A program made the position numbers and the translations under genes. From the NCBI GenBank assembly GCA_030704615.1, contig CM060733.1:63550001-63614000 (forward strand): a stretch of 64,000 bases of DNA, given 5' to 3'. The notes beneath the pieces were generated by a model, which saw only the letters and a program-made list of their open reading frames with translations, was not told the DNA's origin and did no database searches. The DNA comes from Takakia lepidozioides (lineage: Eukaryota > Plantae > Bryophyta). The number at the start of each line of letters is the position of its first letter. Within the stretch, counting starts at the first letter, position 1. Below, piece by piece: positions 14,421 through 54,115 of this stretch.

Positions 14421-15258
14421 GTCACCAATGACTGGGGTCAGAAAAGTATTTATTCCACAGCTTCTCCTCATCTCTATTACCTTTTTTTGGCTGCTTTCAT
14501 GTTGTGAGGGAAAAACAGGGTGAAATGTGCTGAAGAAGGTGCCTTGATTAGCAGTGCCTGATTTTATCAATTGTGCCGCTGCTGCTGCGGCTTCCAGTTG
14601 ACCATCTACCCATGCAAGTCTCTTGTAGCTATTGATCCACATGGATTCACATGTACTCTTCTTGGATGAATCTGGACCCACATTCTATCCCTGCTCCTTC
14701 AGCTATCCATGCCTCTGCACAAATCATGCATACATCCTTGCCTTGCTGCTAGCAGTTGACAATGACAGCCTTGACTTGTTCTAGGAAACACACAACTCAA
14801 CTCATCACACTAGTTCCTATGCTAAATTGCATCTGCTACTCTCTGATTGCATCTGCTTCTCTCTGTAGTCCAACATGCATTCACCTTTTTGTCTCCATTG
14901 TCCCACCATTGACTGGGGTCGGAAAAGTGTTCATTCCAAAGCGTCTCCTCGTCTCTGTTATCTATTTCCTGCTGCCACATCGGCAGTAACTTGTCAAAGT
15001 CACTCCAAACCATCAGAGATCCACCCAACGAGCTAACTCACAGAATTCAATATGCATCTCAGGGCCGAGTCTGATGAGAGGGCAAAACAGGCTGAAATAG
15101 GTTGAAGAAGAAGGTGCCCTCACCACATTGTCCTTGATCTTGTGTCACGACCCAGGAGACCATCAACCCAAAATGACCTCTTGTGTGTGCTGCTTGTGTG
15201 TGCTGCTTGTGTCTGTAGTCAGGTAATGTGGGATTGGTCTGTGACACGGTGCAGCTAA
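14421..15258 (-). pseudogene. OSB-type PDF-motif repeat exons abutting the PPR array
   Basis: NPTLPDYRHK; EETLWNEHFSDPSQWWDNGDKK followed by a GT donor; GPDSSKKSTCESMWINSYKRLAWVDGQL; DEEKLWNKYFSDPSHW*; repeated linker GTFFxxFxPVxPS. Confidence 0.7.
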
Positions 15259-15399
15259 GCGGGGAGAGATTGAAACACGACCTCCTAAGACCAAACTGAC
15301 TCTCCCAATAAGCTTGTAAACATCAGGAAGAATACCAAATCATGGTACTAATAGGAGCCAAGAACCCACATTTGCAGGATGGACAAACTTCTTCACATC

Positions 15400-15570
15400 A
15401 TACAGTCTCCAATGCCTCCATCCCACATCCATGTTGGGCAAACCCTCAGCCATATTGTTGAACACTGCCATCCTCCATGCTCACACACTTCGCATACATG
15501 TCCACCAGAGTAGTGTCCAGAATGATGGTTGGCACGATTCCAGCTTTCAATGGCAACATGGACCTCTTTA
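15400..15570 (-). pseudogene. Degenerate PPR fragment
   Basis: KEVHVAIE...ILDTTLVDMYAKCVSMED...VFNNMAE across frameshifts. Confidence 0.7.
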
Positions 15571-16289
15571 GAGCTTGAAATCCGGTCCTCTTGCATGAAT
15601 CTGAACGTAACTTATTCATTCCAGAGCTTCTCCTCGTCTATGTTATCTATGAAAAAGGTTCTACATGTAGGATCTCCCTCTGAGATCGCTGTGTGAAACC
15701 CCTTCGCGCTCAAGGACGCGGGGGCATCGTCAACCCTTCCCTGCGCACACCTCTCCGGGGTATTTTCCGGTTATTTTCGGGCATCCCGGGCAGCCCGGGC
15801 AGATTCCAAAGAAATTGACAACGACAGGTGGCGACGAAACGTGGCGACAATGACGTGGCACTATGGCACCCTATACCTGCTCTACGCTAAACTAGCTTCC
15901 GACCTTCGGTCATCGCTAGAACTAGGGCTTCGTGTTGCTCCGCACTACTAGCGACAAATTCTGAGAACTACGTTCAATTTTCACAATTAGACAAGATAGT
16001 CTAAAGGGATGGCTGTCACAGGCATTACGAAATTGCATGCATGTTCCTTTGCATCGTGAAAGTAGGTGCCACTTAGGGAGTCACTCATCAGGGAGTCACT
16101 CAGGTAGATATTAGTCATCTAGGTTTATGCAATTTTGCTACATTTGATTGTCAAGTAGTACAGGATCTGTTTTAAATCTAATATGTGTAGTATTGTCTTA
16201 AGTGTGAAGTGTGCACGAGGTACAAAGTCTTGGGGCAAGGCGGTTGGAGACCATGCAACACACTTGCGAGGTTGAACCAATAGCCCCAC

Positions 16290-18961: not shown

Positions 18962-21900
18962 TCAGCGTACCCTAGGCTTTGACACAAAAATTGTGCTCCA
19001 CTTCCCCTTCAAAGGGATAAATGTGTTGTGCAGCCATTGGGCTCCAGCCAGAGAGGGCCGGTGGAAGCCCAGACTGTAAGACCTGCAGGCCAGTGCGAAC
19101 TGAACAATATCAAAGGCCCCACATGATATTTGCTTAAAAGTTTTGCTTCCCATGCCTTGCTGCCAATGGGCGCCTTGGGATGGAGCTTCTTCTATGAGTG
19201 ATCTTTTCGGCTTCCATGCTGATGCCATATCACCAAAACAGCTTACAAACTGAGTCTCTGCAGATTACAACAGACAAGCAGGATTCCTTAAGTTATTACA
19301 TGGATATAACCATAGACTACTACATCTAGCAAATATGCACTAGAAAAAAAATTCGAAAAGGGTACCTGGGAGATCCACAGCTTCATTTGCTAATGCATCA
19401 GCATCTGAGTTCAATTCCTGCATGCATACATGCATGCAAATGTCACCACACACCACATACCTCCTGATCAATACCAGCATGTTTGGAAAGCATCCTAGGT
19501 ACAATAGGTTCAGACAGATTGACAAACTCTAAGAGCATAAGCTGTGTCCAGATATTTATTTTGAAGGCCATTAGTCAAAGATCGATGGATATGGTTTGAA
19601 GGTATGAACACTAAAGGTTAGTTATATTGTAGGAAGATGAGAGAGAACAAAGGGAGGAATAAAAAGAGGAGAGAAATTACTACCATAAACTTGCTTTCAA
19701 AATAAGATGAGGATGAGTGTGAGAGGATGAAGATTGGAAACATGGCAAGAAAAACAAAAGAGGTGATATAATCTCAAAACCAGGCCAAGACCTGAAATTT
19801 ACCCTGTCAATATGACGAATGGAGCACTCGGCAAAGTTCTGGATCAAGTTGTGTGCTTCTCGGCATAGGGGAGCAAGAGTCGCTTGGTTTACTTTCCAGT
19901 TCCCTAGCACCTTAGTTCATCACCATTCCAAATTCTTAGCGAAACAAAAGAGATGATGTCAGTGCTCATATCACTAGCATAACTCCTGGAGAATACCAGG
20001 AGGGAGAGAGCTCTATGTACTCATTAGAGGATGCATGCAACATGACACCTTCCAGCTGTGAACCTTGTGCTGGATTTGGATGAAGCAGAAGATGGGGAGG
20101 GGAAAGACTGAGAAACCCCATTTCCATGAAATGCCAGATAAAGCCTTGTTTGCCGTAGACTTGTGGCCAGAAAAGCCAAGAGAGAGAGTTTAATTTAGTC
20201 ATGTCAAGAATTGTCCAGTCCTAGATCACTTAAATCTGCTCCTGTTTTGTTTAACGACATCATACATCTGGACCTGGTCCAGCTCCTTCAATATAGACAC
20301 TAGCATTTTACATAGAAACCTCACAAGTCCTGCAAAACTCCTTCCTAGATTCCACAAGTAGAGTAGAAACCCCCATAGATTTTTACTAGAATATTTCGTA
20401 GACTCTGTGTAGAAGTCAAAACTGCAGCTATGAGAAAAGCCATAGCTCAGCAGTTAAGGGATTGGTTCTTTGAAGCTGTTCTGCAAATTCAAAATGCTCC
20501 AGGTGTGCATACTTGAGCCCCTAGGAGGTCATAGTGTCACAGTGAATCCATGTAGGTGATACCTATTTCAAGGTAGGAATGAAGAATTATAGTAGGCGTA
20601 TTCTTGTCAAAATTCCATCGTATGGCAAGGCTGCCACTGAAAAGGTCCCAACATCTTCCTACAGTCCATCAGAAATTTGAGACTAACACAAACATGTGTT
20701 TTCTCTGAACACCATTCCACATCGAGTATGAGGCAGCAAGAAGGCTTCCCTTATGCCCTTTTCTTTCCTTTTGACAGTCCAAGCATGTCTACCCTCTAAA
20801 GCAAGTGAAGCTGCCTCACCTGGCCCCATTATGCGCACACCCACCAACCAATAGATTAGTAATTTGCATAGAATTCCAGGCTTAAATGGCTTGACAGTTG
20901 TTATCCATGTCCACTTTAGCTAGGAGACATTCATGGATTGCAAGAAATGAAATGAAATGGTACTTTATAACGTCCGCGGAAAGCTCAAAGAGCTTATGGG
21001 ACAAAAGGGAAAAGCAGGAAAGAAGAGACAATACCATGCCAAAAGCAGCCCAGAAGCAACTACTGCTCAAGGGATTGCCCAAGGGCCAAGGCCTCATGCA
21101 GATAAGCTGCCAAGCACTTCTGATCCTCATAATGGAAGACTTCAGTGAGAGATTGGGTTCCACAGAATAGACAGTTGAATCTCCCACGGATCTCATAGTA
21201 TAGAGGGCAATAAAAGAAGAAGTGTTCTTCAGTTTCGATTTCCTGGTTGCGCCCGGTGCACGCTGGGCATAGGCGATCCTCCCGTTGCAGGTTTTCCCAT
21301 CTACCAGTGTCTATCCGTAGATTGTAGGAGCCCACCCTGAACTGCCCCAATGCCCTGAGGAGGGAGGGAGATAAAGGCGCCGAAAGGTAATTGGAAAGGA
21401 AAGGTAAAAGGAACGAAAGAAAAGACAGCATACCAGGGGGTGGGAGGGTGGTAGTATCTCTTGCAACAGTACAGCGGCAAAGCAAAGCATTGCTTATGCT
21501 TTTACAGCAGCACTCAACATTGCCTTTGCATCTTCAATGCACCCAAATTTGACATACATGTCCACCAGGGCAGTGTTCAGAATGACATCTGGTACAATCC
21601 CAGCTTGACGATGTCAGCATGGACCTCTTTGCCCTTTTCCAGGGCAGCCAGGCTCGTGCACGCATTGCAAATGCAAACAAAAAATGAGAAGACCAGCCAG
21701 GGCTTCTAACATTATAGGGTAGCTTCTTTCCTGACATGTAGGACGGCTGCTTTAGGTTAGGACATAGGGAGAACCCTACTCCGTTTCCCATTATCCCATT
21801 CTGTTCTAGGCAAAAAAAATCCTAACAGAATAACGGGATTAGGCAATTCTTTGAGTGGTATCACCAAAACTTAGCCACCATCAAAGATAAAAGCAAGAAG

Positions 21901-31937: not shown

Positions 31938-32790
31938 ATTAGGTTCCACTAACTGCTGCAACTGAGCATCCCACAGGAGGCCAGGTCCACTATCCCAGAA
32001 AGCATGCGATCCTGGGAAGCTGAGCAGTGTAGGTAGTGCTGCTTGTGGTTGATCCACCTTGTTGACCACTGCCAAAGGCGATCGGTCATCGTGTCTCACA
32101 CGCTGAGACTGCCTCACTGTGTCCAAAATGCTATCCACTGTGAGGTGTGTTGGCCGCTGCACCCCATCAAATGCACGCTTGAGCAGTGCGGGTGGCATCA
32201 AATTAGTCCACCATAGCCGTGGACGATGAGCCCATGACCCCACTGTAGCTGCATCCAGCAACACTGCTGACCCAATCCACGACCGGACTTGATGCACACT
32301 GACCATCACCTTGGCCCGAGAATTGCCCATCAATGACACATTCTCCAAGATGTATGCTGGAGATACAGCTTGATGAAGCTGTAAGTGGCGCAAAACCCAC
32401 ACCATCTCCCAAAACAGACCCAACCTCGAGTCTCACAATCCATTGCCATGCCCGGCTGATGAATGCCCTTAGCAGGGCCAACCTCCCACTACCAAATCAA
32501 TGGAGCCAACCCGTTCCAAATCCTGCGCCCCCAGCAACGAAATATCTGCTGACAAGGCCTGCTGATATCCACGAATTGTAGACACCGGCAACAACTAAGG
32601 GTACTGCTGCACCAACTGAGCAACATGACAGAGTGAGACGCGTTGTGCGGTCTCATCCCTCTCCACATACAAGTAACGCCGTACTCATACACATGCCTGT
32701 AGAACAACAGCCAACCCGATGCTGATCCCGCCAAACAAGTCCAAAAGGCAAATGCATTCATCCGGACACTGCCACACGATCAGTGTGGTA
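31938..32790 (-). pseudogene. Retrotransposon-encoded C5 cytosine DNA methyltransferase domain (motifs I-VIII, 3' truncated)
   Basis: One frame: LLDLFGGISIGL (I), YLYVERDE (II), ADI (III), IDLVVGGWPC*GHSSAG (IV), DSRLGLF (V), YILENV (VI), GSWAHRPRLWWTN (VIII); four internal stops. Confidence 0.9.
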
Positions 32791-32921
32791 TCCAATGGTG
32801 ACAACTGAGGTGGTCTTGGTGCAATCCCCGCACTGTCCTCCTCTCCTGACGGTACAAAAGCCTCTACCCAGGTTTGTTGCACACAACAATCAGCAACCCG
32901 CTGCAAATCCTTGCTCGAGCG

Positions 32922-33566
32922 TCACAATGGAGTGTGAGCAACCATGGCAGGCAACTCCGCCATACCATACATGTCATCCTGCTCTCCCAGAGGTGACACA
33001 TCCTCTGAATGAGTGTTGTCATCCAACAACTCTCCAGGCCAAGTCACTGCAGCTGTGAATGCTGCCAGTGTTGGCATCTTGCCTCGCTGGGCAACCGCAA
33101 CTCCTCCTATGAACATCACAGGGAGCTGCACACGCCGGCCCTCCCCTGACTGCCATCCAGGCCTATAGGAAGCTGACTCCTCCCAAAAATCCAGGGTGAA
33201 GCCCATAGGGTACAACACTGCCCCACCAACAAGGACATCGTACGAGGCCGCGTCTGTCACAATGGCCTTGGCTCTCATCACTGAGCCATCTGTAGGATGA
33301 TCCGGCTGTAGTCGAATAGCCAACTCACGCCGTATCATGCCTCGAGCTTGCTCTGATCCTCCCAGAGATGTCTGTATCTGGAAAGGGCACGGCTCCATAT
33401 CTGCCTCTGTAAGGCCCAAGCCTGCAATAGCAGCTCTGCCCAGCATCAATGGCTGAGCTCCCGAGTCCAACAAGACTTGCAGTGGCCGGTACCTCTTGCA
33501 TGTCGGTCCACTCAAACAGAAAATGTCATCCTGGTTGTCTAACATGACAACTCCAGGTGTCACCAT
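32922..33566 (-). pseudogene. Retropepsin-like aspartic protease of the DNMT-carrying element
   Basis: VLLDSGAQPLMLG...YDVLVG; same frame as the DNMT, separated by one TGA. Confidence 0.85.
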
Positions 33567-34559
33567 GGCGCGCTCAATGGCTGGCCTAGCTGGCAGCTGC
33601 AGCTTGTCATGGCGCCGTCATGGCAGTCTTGACCCTCACATCCGAGGATCCCTCTGGCACTACACCTCCCACTATCTCCGCAGAAGATGAAGTAACCTCC
33701 CCACTCTCACAGAGTATAGCTGCCAACCTGAACACCTCAGTTGGTCTTACCCCCGGCGTCGCAATCATGGTAGCCGAGAACAGTGGAGTCTGGCACACAG
33801 ATGTGGCCGCCCCAGCAGCACACTAGCTGCCGTAACCTTGGCAACACTAGGTAGTGGTGCTGCCCGTGTAGCTCTCCCCAATGGCATAGTAACCTCCGCC
33901 TCGATAACAGTCGGGCGAGATCTAGGTGCCATGGATGGCATCGACACTGTCTCCGCCAATGTTAATGACTGAGGAAGCCTGGCTTGACGGCTTGCCTCCC
34001 CACGCTGTGGATCCAACTCCACCTCCGCACCCCGTGCTCAGGAACTCGTGCTGCTCCTCGAGTCACTACCGCAGCCGACTCCACTTGCACTAGTGGTAGT
34101 GCTGCCCCGCACATAGTGGTAGTGGTAGTGGTGCCCGGCACTAGTGGTAGTGGTGCCCCACCCACAGTGGTAGTGGTAATGGCACCCCTCACTAGTGGTA
34201 GTGTTGCCCCGCACATGAATCCCATTCCTCCCATGTCTCCTCCCTCAGGAGCAAGAGGTGGACCATCTGGCCTTAGAGCCGGTACCACCTGAGCTGTGGC
34301 CATGGCAGCGAGCCTCTACTCTAGCTGCTGAAGCTGGTTGGCCATGCCTTGGTCACCACCCTGACCTCCGCGACCTTGGCCATGTTGAGCCTACACCTCG
34401 TCCTCTCTGGGCTGCTCCACCTCGCCCCCGGCCACTATTGTTCCATTGGAACTGGCCTGGGCGCAACTCATGATGCAAACCATAGCACTGGGCCTCTCCA
34501 TCCTCTCATGTACCCCCATGACAGTGCTATCAGTCCCTTCAAATTGGATCAGTGTGGCA

Positions 34560-35866
34560 CGAGCAGTTCCTGCACTCAGCGTACTTGCCACAATGCCCAC
34601 ACTGCATCTGTGCAGGCTATGTCAGTGCCAAACCATTGCCTCCCTCTGGGCAATCCTTCTTGACATGGGGTCCCCCACATGTCCAGGACACCACATCCGC
34701 CCGTTGTTGGCTAGCAAATGAAGGGAGAGACCCCTGCATCTGAGGCCCTCTCTGCCCTTCCCTGGGCTTCACCTAAGCCCCCTTGTTGCCTTAAGCACGT
34801 TGAGGTAGTGGCTGGTTAGGAGCACCACTACCCCGTGGTGCCTCCTTAGCAAATCCCACCATGACCACTCGTTCCTCCACCATGTTGAGCTCTATCCGCT
34901 CTGCCAGCAAAAACATATTTGCTAATGTGGGTTGGGCCGCTTGTAGGAGAGTTGTATCCCACACCCTTCTCCTCAGCTCCTTGTCCAATATCCCGTACCA
35001 GAACTGGAGTGTCTGAGCCTCCGTAACCCCTTGGGTTATATTAATCAAGCGCCTCATGCGAGTAAAAGCCTCCCTCAAGCTCTCAGTAGGCTTCCGTTGG
35101 AACTCTTGCAAGCTCCTCAACTTCTCTGTCCTCACCCCTTGGTAGTTCCTTCTCAACTCTTCGAAGAACTCCACAACAAGGTTGAAGGCAGGCACCGCCA
35201 CTGGTGCTGGGGCAGCAGTAGTTTGGGTGGACGTCGTAGTTGCTGTACCACTAGTTTCACTATTGCTCGTGGAAGCTGCTGTTGTAGCTGCTGTTGTAGC
35301 TGCTGCTGCTGGTGCAACTGCCGGTGTGGCTGCTGCTCTTGTGCCTCTAGTGATGGAGACATAGTCGGGTGACCAGTACATCCTCCACTCCTCGATCTCA
35401 ATATCGTGCCCCCGCCTAAACTCATGGTAATCATCCATGGGCGGCCCCTCAAGGTGCTGAAAAAGCCCTTTCCATGCCATAAAAGGCGTAAACAGTTGCG
35501 CATTTGCTGCAAGTCACACCAACTATCAAACTCTTGGATAAAATCATCCAACTCAATGGTGCCCACCGCCCCAGAGTACCTTCGTGGCCCCTTGGTGGCT
35601 CCATACATCTCCTCCATTGTGTCCCACAACAATGGCAAGGAAACAACTTGCACCACCGATGTGAGTCCTCCTGATGCACAATCCGAATCAGAACCTTCCG
35701 TAGAAGACACAGGAGGTGAAGGTGGCCTAAACCGCACACCTTGTCTCGTATACCCGCTAGTATCGCTAGTGCTCGTACCGGCACTTTCCCCAGCAACTAC
35801 TGGCACCTCCGTGTTGACAAACTGGCACTCAACCGGCCATGAACCTGTCTCTAACCCCCTCTCCAC
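34560..35866 (-). pseudogene. Gag and zinc knuckle(s) of the DNMT-carrying element
   Basis: RRYSG..IELDDFIQEFDSWC, FQRKPTESLREAFTRMRRL, FWYGILDKELRRRV; knuckle remnants WTCGGPHVKKDC (about 34650-34690) and CGHCGK; frameshifted. Confidence 0.8.
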
Positions 35867-38359
35867 AAGGTAACCGGGTAGATAACCTGATGCGGCTTAT
35901 GGTCTGGAATACTAGATTCCTAACATAGCCTGCACCTGCATCTGCATCCACCACATGCACTCCTATGGTTGGCTAATCATCACCTCCAACCTCACCACAG
36001 GAGAAACAAAGATGGTCTGACTGGTCATCAACCCAGCCTCACCAGCGACAGCATGCTCTAGGGTGGGATCGGCGATCAAGCCCGAGTCCTCCACCTATAA
36101 AATCAAGCGCCCACACAAAACTAGCATGGCGCACAATCAAGCATACAGGTGTGGAGGGGATCCAAACACAAGAATGAAAACAACAACTCCCCCACACCAA
36201 AAATCTCTCCACAGTGTCGCTCCTACAACCCAGCCCAAACCCGGACTGACTCTTGCCTCCACCTACGGAAAGGTCTCGGCCTATAGAGAAGGTGGAAAGC
36301 TATGAGGAAGGGAAACTAAAGCAATGCCTATCCCCAGCACGCTCTCATCCCAACACCCTCTTTTTTTTCCTCTCTTCTCTCATTTGCATGACCATGAGAG
36401 CATCCTGTAGACACTCCTCAAACCGCCCTCCACGAGCTCATGAAACTTGGCCTCCAAGGCCCCATGCAAGCCTCCACAGGGTCTGTCAGTGCCTCCTTAC
36501 GTCCACCCACCATTCCTCAGAATGGAACCACCTCAGGAAACCACGCCATTCACTAGAGGTTCAAAAATTGAGCAAATAGAGGTACATATAGGCCCCAACA
36601 ACATTTTGTCCAAAGGAATTACCTGCAGGCTGGTCTCCCCCATAGTTAAGAATTGGGCTGAAAACCAGAAAAGATTACCTGCAGGGGAGTAATCCCCTTT
36701 GTTAAAACGCAACAGGAGGCAATTCCGACTTTTCTGCCGGATCAGCTAGCTCAAAACCGTTGTTCTTCAGAGCCCAACCTCCCCATCAAGGTCCCACGAA
36801 ACGAGTGAAAAAATGATTTTTATTTTTTTTATTTTTTTTTCACTCTGCTTGTTCACGGCCTTCCGTGGCTCCAACCGCCACTACTCCTCACGGCCCGCCG
36901 TAGGCACTCGTTGGCCACGGGCTGCCCAGTGATACCCCGTGGTACCACTCCCACGAGCCTTCACGGCTCGCCATCCCCACGATCTGGTCACCGTGCCCAC
37001 CCGTTGTGTCCGCACCACGACTTCCAACGGTCACGGTCAACCATCATGACCTGGGCTCGTGGTATCTCGTGATACCACCCCAACGGCCCATCGCGGCCAC
37101 TATTCCCTGCGTTCCCTGGAACTCCCAATGAGTTCTCATGCGTTCCTGAAGCGTTCCCAAGCTCTCCCCGAGCTGGGGTTTGCTCCAGCACCTGCTGCCG
37201 ACGAGCTATGGCTTCTGCGGAGCCATCAGCCCCGTCGCCCTGCACTCCTCAGCTCTCACGGCCCACTAGAAGCGCCCCCAACTCAGCAAGCAACCTATAT
37301 GCTGCCCAACAAACTCCCTTTCTTCATGAAGCTCACAAAAACGAATCTGAAAATACACACCTTTACATACTTGGTGCACCTGCACTTCTCATGCATATCC
37401 CCTGGCTCTAGGGCGCCTTGTTGCTACCCTTCCAGCCCCGCTCTTGCCACTCCAACAGCCCTTACACTGCTGATTTTCAGATTGAAACTCCAACTCAGCA
37501 CATGCTTCACAAGTGCACTGATTTTGCACACAAGAGGGACCAGCCTCCTCTCTTCACTCATACCTCTTCATGAGCTTGGAGCTGAAGCTCCCAACGGGCT
37601 GCGATGCATCCCCTCGCAGCTCCACCATTTGGCTGCTCCTCATCTACCCGCAACAACTAGTTTCGGGCAGAGATATTTGGAGCTGATCATATCATCTCCA
37701 ACCTGCAACATGCTAGCTTCCCATGCACAACCCACATTCATGCAGCTCCTTAACTCGACCTGCAGCTGAAGAAGACGACCACCAGTTTGCCCACTCGTGG
37801 CTAGCATCTCCTCCGCTTCACACTAGAAGCCCAAACTTGGTTGTCATAGCGTTGAGCTATGCGACGCCGCTCTTCAACATAGGCTACCCGCCTCTCTATC
37901 CATGGCAAACCTGCAACCTGTTCGCCTTTGCACTCTATCCGCTTTGGATAGGCTCATGCACGGCTCCCTGCACTCTAGGCTGAACCGCTTCTCATGATCT
38001 GAAAACACAAGTGCTACAACTAACTCGAACTTGGTACTCACAGACTCGAGCTGATCTTTCTTGAGTGATAAGGAAAGGAATAATACAAGCACACAAGCTC
38101 TCTCAAACTCACATACTTGCACATGAAAACATCACTCATATATTAAGTCGAGCCAAGTGCACCCCACTCCATGGGGATCCACACTACAGCGCCATAGCTA
38201 GACGCGATGAGGCTCAACTCGAGAAAGATGAGTCCACCGCGATCTGCCGTGAAGATAACAACGCCAGGTGCCCAAACATGTATTGGCCCTTGGATTGACA
38301 CTTGGGTCAATCCCAAATGTCAATATATAGAAGCTAGCTAGTGGTAAAATAACTTGACA

Positions 38360-39613
38360 GCCACCATTGTTGAGCATAGCCCCTCAAATAGGTGGGAGCC
38401 ACTTCCACCCGCTCCTCGTCACTCAACTTGGCCGCACGGAAGTACTGCTCTAGCTCCAAGAGCCAGGTGTTGAGTGCCTTCCGATTTCGGACGCCCTCAA
38501 AGGTGTCGGGTTCTTTAGGCTTCACCTTAAACTTTGCCGTAGTAGAAGTGGCATTAGCCGCCCTCAACACGTCTTTCAACGTCCCGCCAAACTGCGCCAA
38601 CAACCCTTCCCAAAAGACTGCTGGCATGGGAGGCATCTGTTGGTCTGTCGGAGCTCTCAGGGATTCCTCGGGCTCCGACTCCTCAGATTCCTCCCGTTCT
38701 TGAGTGGCCTCGCTTTCAAAAGCATGCATTGCTTCCTCAAATGGCCGCTTCGGTGACACGTCGCCCCCATCGGGCTCACCAGGATCATCATCTTTCGGGC
38801 CGTTCCGCTTTCGCTTTGGCTTGCCCGACCCCATGATGAGGTCGATCCCAAGGACGATCGCATACTGAACTCTAAGCTCTGATACCAAGTGTCACGTACC
38901 TCACTTCGGTAAGCTCCCCTTCAAGTCATAGTTACTCGCTTTGATGCGCGCGCCTAACTCCCAACATGGCCGTCGGGCAAACTCAGAGCTTCGGCTGCTC
39001 ACTAGGACACAACGGTCCCCTTTTCTCCCCCAACAGACCCTCCACCAATTTCGGCCTAGTGGAAATTCCCTTTGGTAGATGGCAGTCCGGAATAGCTCCC
39101 CACTTCTTGGTCGCTTTTTGGCTCGCTCGCTTACTCACTAGTTTTTTGTCACCAACGGGCTTGCACCGTTCTCGGGGTTACTACTCCCTATATATACTTC
39201 TGTGACTGTCCGCGGGGGTTTCACAAACAACCATGCCATTTTATGGCGAACCACCACGAAGACCCTCGATTCTCGGTGATGAGTCGCGGTGAGTCTTGGC
39301 CCACCCACCACGGCCCTATTGGACCGTGGTGAGTCCCAAGACTCCCCATGACTCCCACCACAAGGTCTCCGCCCCATGGTGAGTCCTATGCCACCCCCAT
39401 TAAGTCCCACTAAGCTACCTCCACCCCTTGTGGAGCCACCCCTACCGCAACCCGGTGTGCGGGGCTCCACCTAGTGAGCACCTCTGCCTCCTTGAGTGCT
39501 TTGGGCACTCAAGGGTGCTTCAGCCCCCCGTACCTATTGCAGCCACCGCCCCCACCACAGGGGCAGCCCCTCTGCGTCCCAACCCCCTGCCCTAAAAGCA
39601 AAGGGCCGCAACA
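38360..39613 (-). mobile_element. Ty3/gypsy family A copy 1: 5' LTR (38890-39613), iMet PBS (38876-38887), truncated gag
   Basis: TG...CA LTR; PBS TGGTATCAGAGC; gag KPKEPDTFEG..WLLELEQYF..YLRGYAQQWW. Confidence 0.88.
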
Positions 39614-41126: not shown

Positions 41127-41998
41127 TGTTAGAGGGCTGCTTGGGACTTAGACGCTTTTACGGGTTCTGTGGGGTACCCTTAATTTTTGCGCAGACTGAG
41201 ACCAACAAGAGCCTTAGGGGTGGCAGCAACAGGCTTTAGGGGGGGTTACACAGCCCGACACAGCTTTACACAGCCCGTCACAGCCAGTCACAGCCGCCAC
41301 AGTTTCGCACAGCCCGTCACAGCCCAACACAGCCTTACACAGCCAGTCACAGCTCGGCACAGCTTGACACAGCCTGTCACAGTACATGGGAAATAGTTAT
41401 CATTGACAGGGAACGACTGTGAGGGAACGACATCTGCAGAAGGAACGTGTTACTTCAGGGATGACGGTTAATTAGTTAGGTGGTTAGAACAGCTTGCGGG
41501 CAGATAAGGAGAGCGGCAACGGAAAGGAGGACACTTCACGGGGAGCGCTTCTGGGTCATGCATGAGAAGAGATCAGGCGGGGAGCAAGAGGAGGAAAGAT
41601 GAACAGTAGATGCTGATTACCTGCAGAGCTGTAGTGATACGGTAGGGCAGATTAGAGTCACCATGGCATTGGCCTGATACCTGATAAATCATAATCTGAT
41701 ACTTATTCAATACAAACACACTGTGTAGAGTAACATGAGTAAAGCTGTGGAATGAATGCATGATTAACTGGAACTTAATAGATACTGATGCAATCTAATG
41801 CTTTAGTATACACGGTAAGGTAAATTGATAACATGAAGGCAAGAAGGAATACAAATAGGAAGCACAACCATGATTCACTAGCTGCAGGTCATGACTGATT
41901 GTTCTGAGCGGGCTGAGTGCTTAGAGATATCCAACTCTTCTATCTTGGAGTTTCCACCTCGGATAGCGAAGGGATGGGTGAGTAAAAGCCGCTCGACA
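41127..41998 (+). mobile_element. 5' LTR of Ty3/gypsy family B, followed by PBS TGGCGACCATACTGGGGA (from 42001)
   Basis: TGTTAG...CTCGACA termini; internal ACAGCC tandem repeats at 41248-41385; left flank CAGCT. Confidence 0.92.
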
Positions 41999-42607: not shown

Positions 42608-44496
42608 ATGAGTGATGAAAGAGAAGCTAGACTCCAGAGATATTCAGCAAAAAGAAAAAGTTATCTGAAAGCTAATTATCCATATCTTTGGGAGAGAGGA
42701 ATAGACATAGGGGAATCATCTGGACCTCTCACACCATTAAGATCAGAGAGTACATCACCCATACCGGAAGAACTAGAGTTGGATGTCACTCCTTCTTTTT
42801 CTTTGCAAGAAAGATTAAGGGAATTGGTACGGGAAGAAGATCAACCACGAGGTGAAAGATCTGAGGTACATCCCTGGATAAAAGATTTGACAGAAATCTT
42901 TGATAAGAGTTGGCATGGAACACCAAAAGCAGGAACTCCAGTTTCTGAAACGGAAGGTGAAGAAGGAGGAGAGGATGTGGCAGAGCCAACGGAGAGTTCA
43001 GACTCTCCAACACCATTGCAGTTGAGTTACATGAGTGAAGAAGAAACCCAAGGGCAGAACTTGGAGGATGAAAACAGAGAGAAGAAATTGGAAGAGGAAG
43101 AGTATGAAGAAGTAGAACCAACAGCTAAGGTTGAGACTACAACCAGGACATAGTTATCCCTCTTCAACTTCTCCTTTCTCTTACTCTTCCTTTTCAGCTC
43201 TTGCAAAGTGCAAAGTGCAAAGTGCAAAGAATGAAGGCCATACCACCACTGAATGCCACATGAAGGAGAAACACTGTACTATCTATAAAATGGATAACCA
43301 TTATACTGAGAATTGTTACTACAACAGAAGGACAACAGCTAGAGAACCTAGGCAAGTAAGGGTGCATCAAGTGCAACCCCAGCCAAGAAGAAACAATGAT
43401 CAGGACCACTATGGTAGGCCTGGTGGTTATAACAATGGCATGGAAGGGAGAGGTAATTCAAGAGGGAATTACCATGGAAATTCCAGAGGCAACTATCATG
43501 GTAATCCAAGGGGGAATTACCAGCCAGGGAATCAGGATTACAGAAACAATTCCAGAACAGACCAAGGGCGAGGACCTAATGGGGAAGAACTGTGTTATTA
43601 TTGTAATCAGGCAGGCCATCGCAAGGCAGCCTGTCCATTCTGGATCAGACACCAGAATGAGATGAGAGCTCCTGTGAATGAGGGGCCAGTGGTGGCAGTT
43701 CACATGGTTAGGCCATGTGTTGTACCAGTAGTAAGTACAATGATAGTAACGAGAAGCAAAGCCAAACTAATACCTCCAGTAGATGAGGAAGATGATGATA
43801 ATGAAGATGGCAGTGACGTGCCTGAAGATGATGAGGCTTGGAGAGATGAGAAGGAACTGCACAAAGAAGTGGCAGATACCATAAGTGAAATGTAAAAGAG
43901 TACTGATATTCCTATGGCAAATTCCTCTGATTCTGAAAGAGAAGAGGAAGTGAGTGAGGATGAAGGGAAGAAAGAAGCTGCAGACATGCAGAGTAATGAA
44001 GGGACTTTGGCTGAAGTAATATGCCAGTCCAAAGCGGAGATTACCATTGGACAGCTATTGGCTGTGGCACCTTATTGTAGACATAGGCTGTATCAAGCAA
44101 TCAATCAAATTGCCCATGTGACAGGGAACACAGACCTGAACAGCAAGGTGACCAGTTATAATGTGAAGCCGGATGGGCGAGAAACAGTCATGGACTTTGA
44201 TGATTCTATGCCAGTAATCCAATTGAGAATTGGAAGCACAGAACTAACTGATGTACTGATAGATGGAGGCTCTGGCGTGAATATCATGACAAACCAATTA
44301 AGGCAGAAGCTTGGTCTAAGTAACATGAAACCAGCCCCGTTTACAATAACAATGGCAGATCAAAGAAGTGTACAGCCATTGGGATTGATAGAGGAGTTAA
44401 GATACAGATTCAAAAGATGATCTTTATGATTACAGTAACTGTATTGAAAATGGATGAAGTCATGGAAGCTTACTCATTATTGTTGGGACGTCCGTG
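42608..44496 (+). pseudogene. Family B gag remnants (CCHC knuckles) and protease
   Basis: CYYCNQAGHRKAAC; VLIDGGSGVNIM; YSLLLGRPW; gag core appears deleted near 43150. Confidence 0.85.
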
Positions 44497-44564
44497 GTAA
44501 TTCATCCGGTATGGATAAAAAATTGTTATAGGGTGGGTGAAAAAATTGCTTAGAGTCCATCCGG

Positions 44565-46022
44565 TATAAACACGCGACTTCGAGCAACAGCACATTGAAA
44601 GCCTGGACATACCCCCGAATGTCATCTGTTTGCTTCAAATTCCTCATCTTGTCCCGGGCAAGCCAGGACGCGTTGAGGGGCACAAACTGTCTCTTCATCA
44701 ATTCCTTGAACCCACTCCAGTTCAAGGTTTCCGGGCTTGGACCTCGGTCGTGAAGGCGTTTCTGCCACCATTGTTGAGCATAGCCCCTCAAATAGGTGGG
44801 AGCCACTTCCACCCGATCCTCGTCACTCAACTTGGCCGCCCGGAAGTACTGCTCTAGCTCCAGGAGCCAGGTGTTGAGTGCCTTCCGATTTCGGATGCCC
44901 TCGAAGGTGCCGGGTTCCTTAGGCTTCACCTTAAACTTTGCCTTAGTGGAAGTGGCATTAGCCGCCTTCAACACGTCTTTCAACGTCCCGCCAAACTACG
45001 CCAACAACCCTTCCCAAAAGGCTGTCGGCATGGGAGGCATCTCTTGGTTTGTCGGAGCTCTCAAGGATTCCTCGGGCTCCGACTCCTCGGATTCCTCCCG
45101 CTCTTGAGCGGCCTCGTTTTCGGAAACATGCATCGCTTCCTCAAACGGCCGCCTTGGTGACACGTCGCCCCCATCGGGCTCACCAGGATCATCATCTTTT
45201 GGGCCGTTCCGCTTTCGCTTCAGCTTGCCCGACCCCATGATGAGGCCAATCCCAAGGACGATCGCGTACTGAACTCTAAGCTCTGATACCAAGTGTCGCG
45301 CACCTCACTTCGGTAAGCTCCCCCTCAAGTCATAGTTACTCGCTTTGATGCGCACGCCTGACTCCCAACCTGGCCGCCGGGCCAACTTGGAGCTTTGGCT
45401 TGCTCACCGGGGCATAACGGTCCCCCTTTGTTCTCCCAAAGAACCCTCCACCGATTTGGAACCAGCAGGAATTCCCTTTGGTAGTGGCAGTCCGGAACAG
45501 CTCCCCACTCTTTGGTCGCTTTCCGGCTCGCCCGCTTACTCACTAGTTTTTGGTCACCAATGGGCTTGCACCGTTCTCGGGGTTACTACTCCCTATATAT
45601 ACTTCTGTAGCTGTCCGCGGGGGTTTCACAACCAGCCATGCCATTTTATGGCGAACCACCACGAAAACCCTCGACTCCCGGTGATGAGTCGTGGTGAGTC
45701 TTGGCCTACTCACCACGGCCCCTATGGACCGTGATGAGTCCCAAGACTCCCCACGACTCCCACCACGAGGTCTCCGCCCCCATGGTGAGTCCTATGCCAC
45801 CCCCACTAAGTCCCGCTAAGCTACCACCACCCCTTGTGGAGCCACCCCCACCGCAACTCGGTGTGCGGGGCTCCACCTAGTGAGCACCTCTGCCTCCTTG
45901 GGTGCCTTGGGCACTCAAGGGTGCTTCAGCCCCCCATACCTATTGCTGCCGCTGCCCCCACCATAGGGGCAACCCCTCATGTGTCCCGACCCCCCCTGCC
46001 CTCAAGGCAAAGGGCCGCGACA
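44565..46022 (-). mobile_element. Ty3/gypsy family A copy 2: 5' LTR (45294-46022), iMet PBS (45280-45291), truncated gag
   Basis: Closely similar to copy 1; gag extends to LKQTDDIRGYVQAF. Confidence 0.88.
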
Positions 46023-47760
46023 GGTATCTAGTATTGTCATGGGCTGTGGATTATACTATGCTACTTGTTTTCTGGCACGTTATCAAATTGAGCAGCAGAG
46101 GATGCAATCCCGATTTCTGAGTTATTCCAGTGGGGATCATTGGGTCTTACCTTCAGTGCCTTCTCATATGTACCTATATGATGCAAAAGTTATGATGCAG
46201 AAGGATTCCCAACTTCGTTCATGGTTTCATTCAGCTTGGAACAATTTGACAACACAGAAATTCGGCCCTGAGGATATTTTCTTTAAGGGACATGAAGCCT
46301 GGAAATACTTACACTGTTCCAAAGTCATTGGCACACCTCTCACCTATACGGATAAGGAGTTTAGGGTGTTCACTAATTTTGCTTACAAGCACTGACAACA
46401 AGTTATACAGTTTAAACTTCTAGACATGGTGGGACCACATTGTATGCCACACAAAATTCCACTTAAAGTTCGGCCGTTAAAACACCTAAGGGGGGACGAG
46501 GATTCTGATACTATTGTTTCTTCAGAGGACTCTTTTGACATGGCAGATGACTATGCACTTCAGATGGCAGAGAAGAAACGACGGGGATCTCCTATGCCTG
46601 AGCGATTACCTCGTTATCAGCCAAAGGAGGGTCAGACATTTCCAGGTAGTGCTCAATCATCTCCATCCGCCAGTGACAGGACTCGGGCTCGCACACGGAG
46701 TCCTTCACGCGACTCTCACCGACAGAAGGGTGCTCGCTCACAAAGGTTTGTTGATCCCAAACAGTAAACCGTGAGGACACGACTTTTTGAGAGGGGGAGG
46801 GGTAATGTTAGAGGGCTGCTTGGGACTTAGACGCTTTTACGGGTTCTGTGGGGTACCCTTAATTTTTGCGCAGACTGAGACCAACAGGAGCTTTAGGGGT
46901 GGCAGCAGCAAGCTTTAGGGGGGTTACACAGCCTGACACAGCTTCGCACAGCCAGTCACAGCCCGTCACAGCCGTCACAGCCGACAAAGCCAGTCACAGC
47001 CCGCCATAGTTTTGCACAGCCAGTCACAGCCAACACAGCCGACACAGCTTGTCACAGCCCGCCACAGCTTCGCACAGCTAGTCACAGCCCGACACAGCTT
47101 TACACAGCCAGTCACAGCTCGGCACAGCTTGACATAGCCTGTCACAGTACATGGGGAACAGTTATCATTAACAGGGAACGACTGTGAGGGAACGTGTTAC
47201 TTCAGGGGTGACGGTTAGTTAGTTAGGTGGTTAGAACAGCTTGCGGGTAGATTAGGAGCGGCAACAGGAAGGGGAGCACTTCACGGGGGGGCGCTTCTAG
47301 GTCATGCATGAGAGGAGATCAGGCGGAGAGCAAGAACGAGAGCACGGAGAAGAAGGAAAGATGAACAATAGATGCTTGTTATATGCAAAGTTGTAGTGAT
47401 ACTGTAGGGCAGATTAGAGTCACCATGGTATTGGCCTGATACCTGATAAATCATAATCTGATACTTATTCGATACAATCACACTGTGTAGAGAGACATGA
47501 GTGAAGCTGTGGAATGAATGCATGATTAACTGGAACTTAGTAGATACTGAAGTAATCTGATGCTTCAGTATACACGGTAAGGTAAATTGATAACATGAAG
47601 GCAAGAAGGAATACAAATAGGAAGCACAACCATGATTCACTAGCTGTAGGTCATGACTGATTGTTCTGAGCGGGCTGAGTGCTTAGAGATATCCAACTCT
47701 TCTATCTTAGAGTTTCCACCTCGGATAGGAAAGGGATGGGTGAGTAAAAGCCGCTCGACA
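46023..47760 (+). mobile_element. 3' end of a second family B element: accessory ORF end, PPT and LTR (46806-47760)
   Basis: PPT GAGAGGGGGAGGGG before TGTTAG; LTR homologous to 41127-41998 but with indels; right flank GGAGC. Confidence 0.88.
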
Positions 47761-50340: not shown

Positions 50341-50678
50341 AACAGGCCAGGGTATTCCATGACTGGAATTCCCAGTTACTAACTGTGCATGATGGGATGC
50401 ACAAGATACAAATTACCACTAAGAAATCTAGTAGATTACCTGCTATGAGAAGACCTCGAGGGGTCAGGGAGTATGACTGGAGGGGAGGACTGGAGGGAAG
50501 GACTGGATGAGGAGCAGGAAGCTACCCTGTTCGCGGCACACCCAGAGTGGGAGCAGGTTGCAGAGATGCAGCTGGAAGGCCTAAGTTGTTTAAAAGGTAT
50601 GTGCTGTGGTGTGGTGACAGCAACACCAATTGAAGGTGAAACAAGCAGTTACATTTCTATGAAGAAAGAGAAGGAGAA

Positions 50679-53567
50679 ATGGAAATCCTAGAGGAACCAG
50701 CCACTGTGAGTTTACAGGATGAAGTGGTGACTGGTTGGACAATCACAGCTGATGAGCAGGTGAGAGAAGTGAATGTGGGAACTGAAGAGGAACCGAGGAT
50801 GGTGAAGGTAGGGGCTGATTTGGAGCCTGAATTCTTTGAGGAAGCTAAGAGTTTGTTCATCAAATACAGAGATGTATTTGCTTGGAGCTACAAGGATCTA
50901 AAAGGGATACCACCTGAGATCTGTCAGCATAAGATTGAACTGGAACCAGGGTCAGTACCAATCAAACAGGCAAGGTACAGAATGAATCCCAACTATGCAC
51001 AGAAGGTTGGAGAAGAGATCAAAAAGTTGGCTGAGGCTAAGTTTATATACCCGATAGAGTATACAACTTGGTTGTCACCCATTGTGATAGTTCCCAAGAA
51101 GAATGGTAAACTGAGAGTTTGTGTGAACTATAAGAAGTTGAATGCTTGCACGAAGAAAGATCCTTTCCCTTTGCCATTCACAGAAGCGGTATTGGACACT
51201 GTGGCAGGCCATGAGATGTACTCATTCATGGATGGCTTCAGTGGTTATAATCAAGTGCAAGTGGCAGAAGAAGACCAGGGAAAGACAGCTTTCATCACAG
51301 ACTGGGGTGCTTATGCATACAAAGTCATGCCTTTTGGACTTTGTAATGCACCAGCAACCTTTCATAGAGTAATAAGTGAATCTTTTCATGAGTATCTGGA
51401 TGATTTCATGCAGGTGTTCTTGGATGATTTTAGTGTGTACAGCTCTAAGAATGAGCACTTGCATAAATTGGAGTTATATTTGGCCAGATGCAGGATGAGA
51501 GGTCTGGGCCTGAATCCAGAGAAGTGTACTTTCTGTGTGAACTCAGGGGTGCTTTTGGGTCACATTGTGTATAAGAGGGGACTTCTTGTGGATCCCAGGA
51601 AGACAGAGGCCATTAAAGCCTCTCCACCACTAGTAAATGTTAAGAGTCTAAGGAGATTACTTGGACAAACCAGTTATTACAGAAGATTTGTCAAAAGGTA
51701 TGCACAGATAGCAGCACCATTGAGCAAGCTTCTGAAGAAAGATGCAGTGTTTGCATGGACAACTGAATGTCAACAGGCTTTTGAGGAACTTACATTGTCT
51801 GTAACAACTACACCTGTGTTGATTAACCCTCACTGGCATGTAGTATTTCATGTTCACTGTGATGCCTCAGGAGAAGCGTTGGGAGCGGTGTTAGCCCAAA
51901 ATGTTACAGGAAATATAGATTCACCTGTGTACTATGCTAGCAGGTTGATGAACAGTGCTGAAATGAACTATAGCACAACGGAAAGAGAAGCACTGGCAAT
52001 GATTTATGCAGTCAAGAAATTCAGGCATTACCTATTGGGAAGAAAGTTTATGTTTTATGTGGATCACCAGGCTCTGATATATCTGGTGAACAAACTTTTG
52101 ATAAGTGGAAGGATAGCAAGGTGGTTAATAATCTTGCACAAGTTTGAGTTCGAAGTTGTTTACAAGCCTGGCCGTTTGCATCTTGTGGCAGATCATTTGT
52201 CACGCCTAACAACAGGAGAGCCCGCCACAGGAGTAGACGACCAATTACCTGCTGCGAGTTTATTTGCAATGGAGGTGCAAGGAAGTGCAGATGAATGGTT
52301 AGATTGGCAGTGGCCAATCAGATACTACCTTACTCATGGTCACTGCCCACCTAGTTATGGTAAGGAGCAGAGGAAGAGAATCGCTATCAAGGCTTTACCT
52401 TATACTATGGTAGGGGGCAGAATGTATAAGCTAGGACCTGATGGAGTACTTAAACGATGTTTGTACCACCATGAAGTAAATAAAGTTTTGGAGGAAGTTC
52501 ATAAAGGAGTGGCTGGAGGTCATTTTGGAGAAGAGACTACCAGTAGGAAGATACTACTTGCAGGTTATTGGTGGCCTACTTTGTTCAAAGATGTACACAA
52601 GTATTGTCAGAGTTGTGATGAATGTCAGAGGCTAGGACCTTTGCAGAGATCTGGGAAGATGGCTTTGCATCCTACGATGCCTACTGAACCATTGCAGAAA
52701 TGGGGACTAGACTTTGTTGGACCAATTAACCCACCGGCCAAGAATACACAGAACAAGTACATAATTACAGCCACTGATTATACTACGAAGTGGGTGGAAG
52801 CCAAAGCTCTGAGGGACAACACAGCCAAGTCCACAGCAAGGTTCTTGTATGAGAACATACTTACACGATTTGGCTGTCCCTTGGAATTTATCAGTGACCA
52901 GGGAAGTCACTTCATTAATGAGACCATTGAACTATTGACTAAAGAGTTCATGATTGTGCATAGGAAGAGTACAACGTATTACCCACAGGGTAATGGGCAG
53001 GCAGAGGCTACCAACAAAATACTATGTACTATCTTGGCTAAGATAGTCAATGCAAACAGAACGGATTGGGATACAAAGCTGCTGACAGCTTTGTGGTCAT
53101 ACAGGACTTCATATAAAGTCACCACTAAGTATACACCATTCCAATTAGTTTATGGTATAGAAGCTTTACTTCCAGTGGAATTCTTGTTACCTACCATGAG
53201 AACTGAATGGGGAAAGAGAATGGAATTGGAAGATTCAATTAAGGTCAGGAAACATGAATTATACCATGTGGAAGAAATACATGCTGATGCAGCTGATAAC
53301 ATGACCAGAATTCAGATGAAGAGGAAGGATCAGTTTGATGAAGACAAATTAAAGACTTTTAAGACGGGAGATTTGGTTCTCTGGTTGCAGAAGAAGGAGA
53401 AGATTAAAGCTTCTAAGCTTAAATCACCATGGAAGGGACCTTATGTCATACAGAAGATGTATAATAACAACACAGCCATGTTACAAACCATTAACAAAGA
53501 GATGATGGGAAGAGTCAATGCCAATAAGTTGAAGGGGTACAGTGGTATCCATGACAAACCATCGTAG
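50679..53567 (+). CDS. Family B pol: RT-RNase H-integrase (open 962 aa), non-chromovirus Ty3/gypsy
   Basis: FMDGFSGY, MPFGLCNAPATF, FLDDF, HCDAS, TTEREALA, YVDHQAL, HHCC, D-D-E, GPY; no chromodomain. From 50340 the sequence continues the protease broken at 44496. Confidence 0.95.
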   Translation: MEILEEPATVSLQDEVVTGWTITADEQVREVNVGTEEEPRMVKVGADLEPEFFEEAKSLFIKYRDVFAWSYKDLKGIPPEICQHKIELEPGSVPIKQARYRMNPNYAQKVGEEIKKLAEAKFIYPIEYTTWLSPIVIVPKKNGKLRVCVNYKKLNACTKKDPFPLPFTEAVLDTVAGHEMYSFMDGFSGYNQVQVAEEDQGKTAFITDWGAYAYKVMPFGLCNAPATFHRVISESFHEYLDDFMQVFLDDFSVYSSKNEHLHKLELYLARCRMRGLGLNPEKCTFCVNSGVLLGHIVYKRGLLVDPRKTEAIKASPPLVNVKSLRRLLGQTSYYRRFVKRYAQIAAPLSKLLKKDAVFAWTTECQQAFEELTLSVTTTPVLINPHWHVVFHVHCDASGEALGAVLAQNVTGNIDSPVYYASRLMNSAEMNYSTTEREALAMIYAVKKFRHYLLGRKFMFYVDHQALIYLVNKLLISGRIARWLIILHKFEFEVVYKPGRLHLVADHLSRLTTGEPATGVDDQLPAASLFAMEVQGSADEWLDWQWPIRYYLTHGHCPPSYGKEQRKRIAIKALPYTMVGGRMYKLGPDGVLKRCLYHHEVNKVLEEVHKGVAGGHFGEETTSRKILLAGYWWPTLFKDVHKYCQSCDECQRLGPLQRSGKMALHPTMPTEPLQKWGLDFVGPINPPAKNTQNKYIITATDYTTKWVEAKALRDNTAKSTARFLYENILTRFGCPLEFISDQGSHFINETIELLTKEFMIVHRKSTTYYPQGNGQAEATNKILCTILAKIVNANRTDWDTKLLTALWSYRTSYKVTTKYTPFQLVYGIEALLPVEFLLPTMRTEWGKRMELEDSIKVRKHELYHVEEIHADAADNMTRIQMKRKDQFDEDKLKTFKTGDLVLWLQKKEKIKASKLKSPWKGPYVIQKMYNNNTAMLQTINKEMMGRVNANKLKGYSGIHDKPS

Positions 53568-54115
53568 CACAATTTGCATGTTGAAACGCAAAAGCAGTCA
53601 CGGGCTGCGCCAATGATACCAACGGAGTATGGAGCACTTGTCGCTAAGCCGAGCATATATGACCAGGGCGGGAACTATAGGTGTTCGCATACCTATCACA
53701 GCCCATCACAGCCCATCACAGCGTCACACAGCCTATCACAGCCCATCACAGTGCCATACAGCCTATCACAGCCCATACAGATTACACAGTCCATAGGTTC
53801 AGTGACAGGTGGACGCGAATTAACGTTAGAAAAATGGCCATCAAGTGAAGAAAAAGTTTGGAAGTCAAACTTGGAGAATGTGCCACGCGGAAGGGGAAGA
53901 CGGGGGCATGTTTAGAAACGGACATGTGGCGGCTAAGGTGAAGCACACCACGCTGCATCGATTGCAAAAGTGAGTTTCATCATGCAAGAGGACAAATCGG
54001 GCCGTCGAAGTACCTACCCGGTACAACAACTAATACTAATTGTGGGCCCATTAATGCATTCAGTGCCAGGGTAACGGAACCCTTTTCGAGTTCAGAAAAG
54101 AGAAACCTATGCCAC

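Follow-up and report, generated by a model that had tools for sequence, protein, structure and literature searches.

A dead, 3'-truncated Ty3/gypsy retrotransposon of the bryophyte Takakia with a DNMT3-type methyltransferase in its Gag-protease frame: likely packaging for its own cDNA and likely integrase cleavage of a palindrome inside the long terminal repeat

Among described retrotransposons, KnitGypsy-Dnmt3 of the alga Klebsormidium nitens combines DIRS-like repeats with gypsy domains and a DNMT3-type cytosine-C5 DNA methyltransferase (de Mendoza et al. 2018, PMC5890265); the available text gives no mechanism for the repeats. Here, an element is described on the minus strand of a 64,000-nucleotide stretch of Takakia lepidozioides DNA (assembly GCA_030704615.1, contig CM060733.1, positions 63,550,001 to 63,614,000), called the window in the following, and is best read as a land-plant branch of KnitGypsy-Dnmt3. 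Taken as a whole, it is probable that the window copy is a dead, 3'-truncated bryophyte Ty3/gypsy element, that the DNMT3 in its Gag-protease frame is likely packaged to methylate the element's own complementary DNA (cDNA) and that the family's integrase likely cuts a palindrome inside the long terminal repeat (LTR).

Ty3/gypsy domains and DIRS-like repeats are common to the Klebsormidium and the bryophyte elements, as is a DNMT3-type domain that lacks introns and is under purifying selection (PMC5890265), and K. nitens GAQ93235 shows the same order of gag, CCHC zinc knuckle, protease (PR) and DNMT. The bryophyte family differs in its occurrence in land plants and its apparently far higher copy number; furthermore, its DNMT ends the first open reading frame (ORF1) before a conserved stop, whereas PMC5890265 puts the DNMT in the Pol ORF. 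With the self-priming Tf1/Sushi and Tcn1 chromoviruses, as far as described in the available part of Neumann et al. 2019 (PMC6317226), the family shares predicted self-priming, the order of reverse transcriptase (RT), RNase H (RH) and integrase (INT) and the occurrence in bryophytes, but it has a PHD finger instead of a chromodomain, an additional DNMT and copies that are not bounded by LTR ends. PAT/DIRS elements including SymbioDIRS-Dnmt3 share the repeat layout A-coding-B-A-B, and SymbioDIRS also the DNMT3 domain; the bryophyte family differs by a protease, a DDE integrase, TG...CA ends and 4-bp target duplications, and a recombinase was not found in the proteins scanned. REM1 of Chlamydomonas is presumably a PHD-bearing Gypsy element as well. 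Gypsy-7a_cRei from the same genus also carries a PHD finger on a gypsy element; no DNMT is listed for it in the available part of PMC9940879, and the legend there mentions LTR subparts without showing the layout described here. Finally, the cleavage of circles with two LTRs (2-LTR circles) by foamy virus and HIV-1 integrases has the palindromic CA/TG junction and the DDE integrase in common with the bryophyte family. In the viruses, according to the available parts of PMC1180852 and PMC4372172, the palindrome is made by joining of LTR ends and its cleavage is a side route, whereas in the bryophyte family it is encoded within the LTR and bounds every insertion seen.

Neither a report of such elements in land plants nor an explanation of the permuted-repeat mechanism was found in the literature, with Repbase, theses, subscription papers, supplementary figures and bioRxiv supplements outside the scope of the search. 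Marchantia is absent from the text of PMC5890265 and from the searched supplements of PMC5890265 and PMC12344493. The available parts of PMC12344493 and bioRxiv 10.64898/2026.05.21.726589 refer to 'streptophytes' and do not name land plants, those of PMC6338049 state absence for 'land plants, such as tracheophytes', and those of bioRxiv 10.1101/363937, PMC11982613, PMC6453930, PMC6673714 and PMC9940879 report no such bryophyte element. New here are the land-plant range, the placement of the DNMT at the Gag level and the permuted, palindrome-bounded LTR; the enzyme's role and the route of integration are proposals.

The window copy and its methyltransferase

Encoded on the minus strand are gag, followed by a degenerate zinc knuckle, then an aspartic protease and finally a C5 methyltransferase, the last two in one frame. 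An earlier reading of the letters alone (the sequence-only reading) had proposed this arrangement, and all motifs it named were recovered in a single frame where it had placed them: LDLFGGISIG at 32744-32715, GGWPC at 32486-32472, ENV at 32345-32337 and AHRPRLWWTN at 32231-32202. The zinc knuckle is present at approx. 34688-34650 (-), but degenerate, and its first Cys is lost. Five stops interrupt the frame, four of them within the DNMT (32687, 32597, 32471, 32435) and one in the linker (32924). When it was translated with X at these positions and scanned against Pfam, the anticipated PF00145 match was obtained with an E-value of 1.9e-9 and 37.8 bits, compared to a curated cut-off of 22. The motifs stand in linear order as had been stated, with I-VIII in the window and IX-X in relatives only.

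A sequence search of the PDB with the window frame and with the Marchantia protein placed DNMT3A and DNMT3B on top, with bacterial enzymes far behind. For the window frame, the E-values were 1e-5 for DNMT3A, 0.044 for HaeIII and 0.31 for 4onj, which we take to be the DRM structure. An alignment-based model of a relative's DNMT (predicted local distance difference test, pLDDT, 93.5) matched DNMT3A in Foldseek with an E-value of 2.8e-19, and every listed row was a DNMT3. Judged by sequence and predicted fold, the enzyme is DNMT3-like and not DRM-like or bacterial. It is 66% identical to the Marchantia domain. DNMT3 also occurs as a host gene in non-flowering plants (PMC6453930, available part). 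A search of viral contigs yielded 11 matches, all of them weak and partial (E 1e-7 to 2e-4, up to ~100 residues), and hence no sign of a close viral donor, and an atlas search returned DNA-methylase clusters only.

The copy is heavily damaged. Its gag and PR-DNMT parts are kept apart by frameshifted stretches; the Marchantia polyprotein aligned to 34034-31932 at 50% identity and to 35617-34395 in two frames. Likeness to the relatives stops at VEPN (31949-31938). The window contains no RT that is more than 38% identical to the family RT, and this copy lacks both RT and INT. It is therefore considered truncated and dead, and the sequence-only reading was correct on the truncation. None of the listed contig pieces spans the break at 31938, where a deletion or an assembly join are both possible. 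In read sets presumed to come from the host, summed contig depth, which is no measure of copy number, was 65.6 in the flank and 0.39-1.04 million over the coding part in read set X1, and 25 and 90,000-240,000, respectively, in read set X2. This repeat-level depth was alike across gag, PR and DNMT, and the family is likely to be highly repeated in Takakia with thousands of copies.

Family range, domain order and the conserved stop

Homologues of the protease-DNMT fusion comprise 89 proteins of similar length and 13 longer ones, among them members from Marchantia polymorpha, Calypogeia fissa, three Sphagnum species and Closterium. The inferred survival of a related family in embryophytes is thus borne out by Marchantia, Calypogeia and Sphagnum. 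Marchantia Mp_4g09160 encodes gag through DNMT as a single ORF, and in MARPO_0091s0058 PR, DNMT, RT and RNase H are joined. Locus counts refer to the best 80 of 137 metagenome loci (labelled L...), some of which repeat one insertion. The DNMT occupies the same place in these copies, as had been expected: the protease lies upstream of it in 66/80 loci and RT downstream in 58/80, another order was not seen (0/80), and most loci lacking protease or RT are contig edges. The relatives' order is gag-CCHC-PR-DNMT, a stop and RT-RH-INT-PHD. The nearly intact locus L079 contains PR and DNMT in ORF1, and RT, RNase H, an integrase with HHCC and DDE motifs and a PHD finger in ORF2. The predicted layout LTR-gag-PR-DNMT-RT-RH-INT therefore held for the coding order, but not for the LTRs, which are permuted.

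The L079 RT is nearest to that of yeast Ty3 (E 3e-97). By its domain content, the family is Ty3/gypsy with the order gag-PR-RT-RH-INT and a DDE integrase, and so the earlier Gypsy assignment was right. No tyrosine recombinase family matched in 14 scanned proteins, where the rve integrase and the protease were found instead. No chromodomain matched in the scanned family proteins; the PHD finger stands in its place. The RT tree had no resolution at its base and did not include clade reference sequences among its taxa.

A profile search recovered 441 protein clusters at E ≤1e-30. Among the best 150, 148 could be mapped: the DNMT lies between PR and RT in 19 and between RT/RNase H and integrase in 78, while 51 are DNMT-only pieces. 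Named members of the PR-DNMT-RT type, which are more distant relatives, come from Mesostigma, Klebsormidium nitens and Closterium. A quick DNMT tree of 52 domains, which holds no host DNMT3 and leaves the deep nodes without resolution, placed the window DNMT in a clade of 11 with Marchantia, Calypogeia and Sphagnum (SH-like approximate likelihood ratio test, SH-aLRT, 99); the DNMT of L066 paired with Sphagnum (SH-aLRT 99).

The 78 clusters with the DNMT ahead of the integrase make up a large second gypsy type, RT-RH-DNMT-INT-PHD, with P0116, P0130, P0138, P0143, P0147, P0160, P0171 and others as representatives. Its DNMTs are related to those of the first type and form one clade (SH-aLRT 97, 12 included), and no description of this type was encountered in the literature covered. 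Within the bryophyte clade, the Marchantia and Sphagnum DNMTs (P0006, P0007, P0091, L066) cluster (SH-aLRT 94) and leave the liverwort Calypogeia outside, contrary to the host phylogeny, which suggests transfer among bryophytes or old paralogous lineages. Two retroelement proteins of Tetraselmis striata (P0287, P0288) matched the DNMT profile weakly (E ~1e-15) and had no precomputed PF00145 match; they are possibly a further DNMT-bearing lineage.

The catalytic Cys is preserved in 72/75 loci and the Glu of ENV in 73/75, and 4/76 mapped copies have a DNMT domain free of stops. Between the window and the loci, the DNMT showed a rate of non-synonymous substitution (dN) of 0.28 and a synonymous rate (dS) of ~2.3, which was saturated in 38/75 pairs. 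In deep pairs, dN/dS was lowest for RT (0.08), followed by gag (0.18), DNMT (0.20) and PR (0.29). As read from these ratios, the DNMT is under purifying selection between distant lineages; the comparison, which the sequence-only reading had proposed, gave support in deep pairs, but none in close ones, as discussed below.

Behind the DNMT, TAG or TAA stands at one site in 53/55 loci, followed by CAA in 51/55. Thus, the DNMT closes the Gag-protease ORF and is likely made at the Gag level, as far as can be predicted from the reading frames. At the end of the DNMT, L079 reads TAG CAG TTA. This type of stop context resembles the leaky stop of tobacco mosaic virus. DNMT and RT are found in one ORF in P0117 and P0261, and P0177 of K. 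nitens terminates after the DNMT. At the other end of the coding region, a PHD finger follows the integrase (L079:8038-8193; also L066:13346-14467) that is closest to the fingers of CHD4, PHF12, PHF21A, KAT6A and KDM5A. Several of those bind unmethylated H3K4. The family's finger is, by this resemblance, likely a reader of unmethylated H3, and the combination of DNMT3 with such a reader recalls the DNMT3-ADD pairing.

Permuted terminal repeats and the proposed route of integration

The evidence on repeats comes mainly from the Sphagnum-type subfamily, as the window copy shows repeat A only and lacks its 3' end. Complete relatives are ~9 kb long. Repeat A (339 bp) forms their start, and repeat B (112 bp), which is preceded by a purine tract, forms their end. 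Two layouts were observed, A-coding-B and A-coding-B-A-B; the latter is complete in L047, L066 and L071 and partially visible in L026 and L044. Among the distinct 3' ends, 16 stop after B and 5 continue into A (4 visibly as B-A-B), while two further ones belong to a rearranged copy ending in A-B and to a B-A fusion. Each of the 21 distinct 5' ends opens with A, and the 600 bp upstream of it contain no B. A full B+A repeat was accordingly found at 0/21 integrated 5' ends, so that two complete direct terminal LTRs were not seen and the integrated form is permuted in an element that otherwise works in the Ty3/gypsy manner. Of the copies with both ends, 8/10 are flanked by an exact 4-bp target duplication. 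Complementarity for self-priming behind the first A corresponds to positions 166-179 of A in three of four copies tested (L071, L050, L056) and is also present in L079.

The position of the purine tract before B and of the primer site behind A identifies B+A as the true LTR; BA-coding-BA would be the product of ordinary reverse transcription. The copies end at the B|A seam ACGACA-nn-TGTCA, a near-palindrome (GACA-nn-TGTC) inside this LTR. It is retained in the distant subfamily of L079 together with its own purine tract and primer site, and all B ends (21/21) read CACGACA or differ from this sequence by one transition. Five A|B joints were available: three are 2-nt joins (gt, gt, at), that of L056/L057 holds a copy of the primer site and a purine-tract remnant, and that of L047 a templated insertion and a purine-tract remnant. 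Such remnants are expected where free cDNA ends join, as is established for 2-LTR circles.

The window copy fits at its one visible end, which starts with TGTCA and is preceded by target DNA rather than B. The sequence-only reading had let the element begin at 35866, but its true 5' end lies 2.5 kb further at 38359, because the TGTCA there interrupts a neighbouring gag and the primer site follows at the expected place. Over residues 1-77, this gag shares 94% identity with the ORF at 44477-44995, and it ends thereafter; the paralogue aligns only to 38361. The window's repeat A has the same start and layout as that of the relatives and corresponds to the downstream portion of the true LTR. Located 294 bp downstream of 38359 and after CA, the 12 nt behind A are complementary to 38229-38218 with 1 mismatch. 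None of 300 shuffles reproduced this pattern, and two further matches occurred among the 216 TGTCA sites of the window. An early candidate for the 5' end near 36355 was discarded in favour of 38359 on account of the TGTCA start, the cut target gag and the primer complement.

Several odd copies (L008:6332-6443, L014:6342-6453, L053/L054, L056/L057) have an inverted 5' B, a fused B-A or internal inversions and are possibly products of autointegration or template switching. Telomere-like TAGGGTT motifs occur in repeat A of L071 (1679-2017), on the upstream side of the transcript start predicted there.

From these features, the following course is proposed. The RNA would start inside A and prime itself. 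ORF1 (Gag-PR-DNMT) would be made at the Gag level and pol through leaky reading of the stop or re-initiation, which would give many DNMT copies per particle; Gag-PR-DNMT would build the particle, and the protease would release the DNMT. Methylation of CG sites in the new cDNA is narrowly favoured as the enzyme's task. The linear product of reverse transcription would be BA-coding-BA, as is usual. The palindrome GACA-nn-TGTC would then be cut in a staggered manner, creating two CA-3' ends with 2-nt overhangs that are inserted by the integrase. The original ends would be joined by repair, either before integration in a 2-LTR circle or after it, resulting in A-coding-B-A-B, and A-coding-B might arise via 1-LTR circles, double cuts or later B-B recombination. 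The linear BA-coding-BA intermediate, the cut and insertion at the palindrome and the end joining by repair are jointly regarded as quite probable. Foamy virus and HIV-1 integrases can cut palindromic circle junctions (available parts of PMC1180852 and PMC4372172).

A number of observations weigh against this proposal. Symmetric cutting predicts the mirror form A-B-A-coding-B, which was found at 0/21 5' ends; its absence could be due to a preference for the site nearer the joined ends, to A-B-A collapsing upon annealing or to one of the sites being methylated. The repeat data stem chiefly from the Sphagnum-type subfamily with the 3' end missing from the window copy, the A|B joints examined number only five, with L056/L057 being a rearranged copy, and no self-priming match was found in L066. 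Concerning the enzyme, its catalytic activity on DNA is a prediction for this family, and the DNMT of the Klebsormidium element gave no methylation in yeast, a result its authors consider inconclusive (PMC5890265). The dN/dS of close copies is 0.6-0.9, as expected because copies decay after insertion, and gives no support for selection. The ratio of observed to expected CpG is 0.44-0.52 in the element and not under the window average of 0.45, so that no footprint of self-methylation is visible.

The repeats could alternatively stem from PAT/DIRS-like copying, in which an RNA spans B-A-B and serves as template for the second B and the A|B joint. The split repeats would then do no more than restore the ends of a circle that is opened by the DDE integrase. 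The repeat arrangement is that of DIRS/PAT elements, which the Fig. 4c legend also states for KnitGypsy-Dnmt3 (PMC5890265), three of the five A|B joints are nearly identical, and the missing A-B-A-coding-B (0/21) would be accounted for. However, the purine tract ahead of the first B and the self-priming site behind the first A predict an ordinary BA LTR, the remnants of primer site and purine tract that two of the joints contain are marks of free DNA ends, and tyrosine recombinase families were unmatched in the 14 scanned proteins, which makes this copying mode improbable. As regards the enzyme, chromosomes instead of cDNA may be its target, be it the insertion site or, in a self-limiting silencing, sister copies, with guidance by the PHD finger of the integrase; or the enzyme may shield the host from DNA viruses. 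Ideas of this kind have been raised in PMC5890265 and the available part of PMC6338049, the PHD finger resembles those of CHD4, PHF12, PHF21A, KAT6A and KDM5A, and CpG loss is not in excess. Yet fusion to Gag, deduced from the conserved stop, would put the enzyme into the particle beside the cDNA; moreover, the DNMT domain has no targeting module of its own in the proteins scanned and the family is apparently highly amplified in Takakia, so that a chromosomal target is deemed fairly unlikely.

With regard to origin, the land-plant family might have captured a host DNMT3 independently or have reached bryophytes by horizontal transfer instead of descending from algal elements. The poorly resolved deep branches of the DNMT tree leave room for this, and Marchantia and Sphagnum exclude Calypogeia with an SH-aLRT of 94, against the host phylogeny. 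The same PR-DNMT join exists in Mesostigma, Klebsormidium and Closterium, though, and a legend in PMC5890265 reports this unusual repeat arrangement for the K. nitens elements too; a separate origin is given a low probability. A one-off juxtaposition or an assembly artefact, as the broken window copy and its 3' break unbridged by listed contigs might indicate, is refuted by the same fusion in single ORFs of several species and in 66/80 loci and by the repeat-level depth over gag, PR and DNMT alike. The preferred reading remains that of a packaged DNMT3 acting on cDNA and an integrase cutting the LTR-internal palindrome. A wider version of it, considered unlikely, is that a streptophyte-wide Ty3/gypsy lineage, which is alive in land plants and has reached thousands of copies in Takakia, has shifted its attachment site away from the LTR ends to an internal palindrome that contains CG and integrates from end-joined intermediates, while the Gag-borne DNMT3 methylates the cDNA and possibly marks the cut palindrome. 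Dam methylation plays such a marking role for some bacterial insertion sequence elements.

With DNMT-bearing retrotransposons in Marchantia, a genetic model with methylation mutants, the purpose of the captured enzyme becomes testable, and the permuted ends offer a specific interpretation of the DIRS-like repeats in KnitGypsy-Dnmt3, for which an explanation has been lacking. If the proposed route is true, it would be a natural case of an integrase cutting a palindromic junction, which has long been debated for retroviruses; if the shift of the attachment site is true as well, the family would be a natural retroelement with junction cleavage as its standard route and a captured methyltransferase steering integration. 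LTR finders would presumably miss permuted copies, and these may be miscounted as host DNMT genes.

Feature coordinates and surroundings in the window

Parts of the element and of its insertion target are compiled in Table 1.

Table 1. Coordinates of the window element and the adjoining target sequence.
Feature	Position	Strand	Remarks
Repeat A, 5' end of the element	38066..38359	-	294 bp; starts TGTCA, ends CA
Predicted transcript 5' end, self-primer	38218..38229	-	complementarity to sequence just behind A
Predicted self-priming primer-binding site	38054..38065	-	directly behind A
5' untranslated region	35618..38053	-	between primer site and gag start; repeat-level read depth
gag, broken by frameshift and stops	34395..35617	-	PF03732 E 0.00095; 46-65% identity to Marchantia Mp_4g09160
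Aspartic protease	33130..33617	-	LLDSGA at 33473-33456; PF13650 match weak, E 0.05
DNMT3-type C5 cytosine methyltransferase, motifs I-VIII	31938..32790	-	PF00145 E 1.9e-9; cut before motifs IX-X
gag of unrelated retroelement, insertion target	38360..38891	-	remainder absent from the window

Many broken pentatricopeptide repeat (PPR) arrays of the PLS type lie on both strands of the window at 3500-15600, 21500-21650 and 62400, with a kinesin exon among them at 11180-11452. They had been thought to adjoin the element, but are 10-28 kb away from it. Their period of 303-306 bp fits PLS triplets and agrees with the suggested PLS/E type as far as PLS is concerned, whereas no E or DYW family was matched in 49 ORFs scanned from the PPR region. 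Together with the position of the window DNMT in the tree, these arrays point to a land-plant host. Repeats that are 93-98% identical and contain 10-bp tandem units were found at 41127-41997, 46422-47759 and 62679-63955; these are probably LTRs of a younger gypsy family. A gypsy pol ORF without DNMT and with a ratio of observed to expected CpG of 0.18, followed by extra ORFs that have no Pfam match, occupies 50640-53567 and 53942-55768.

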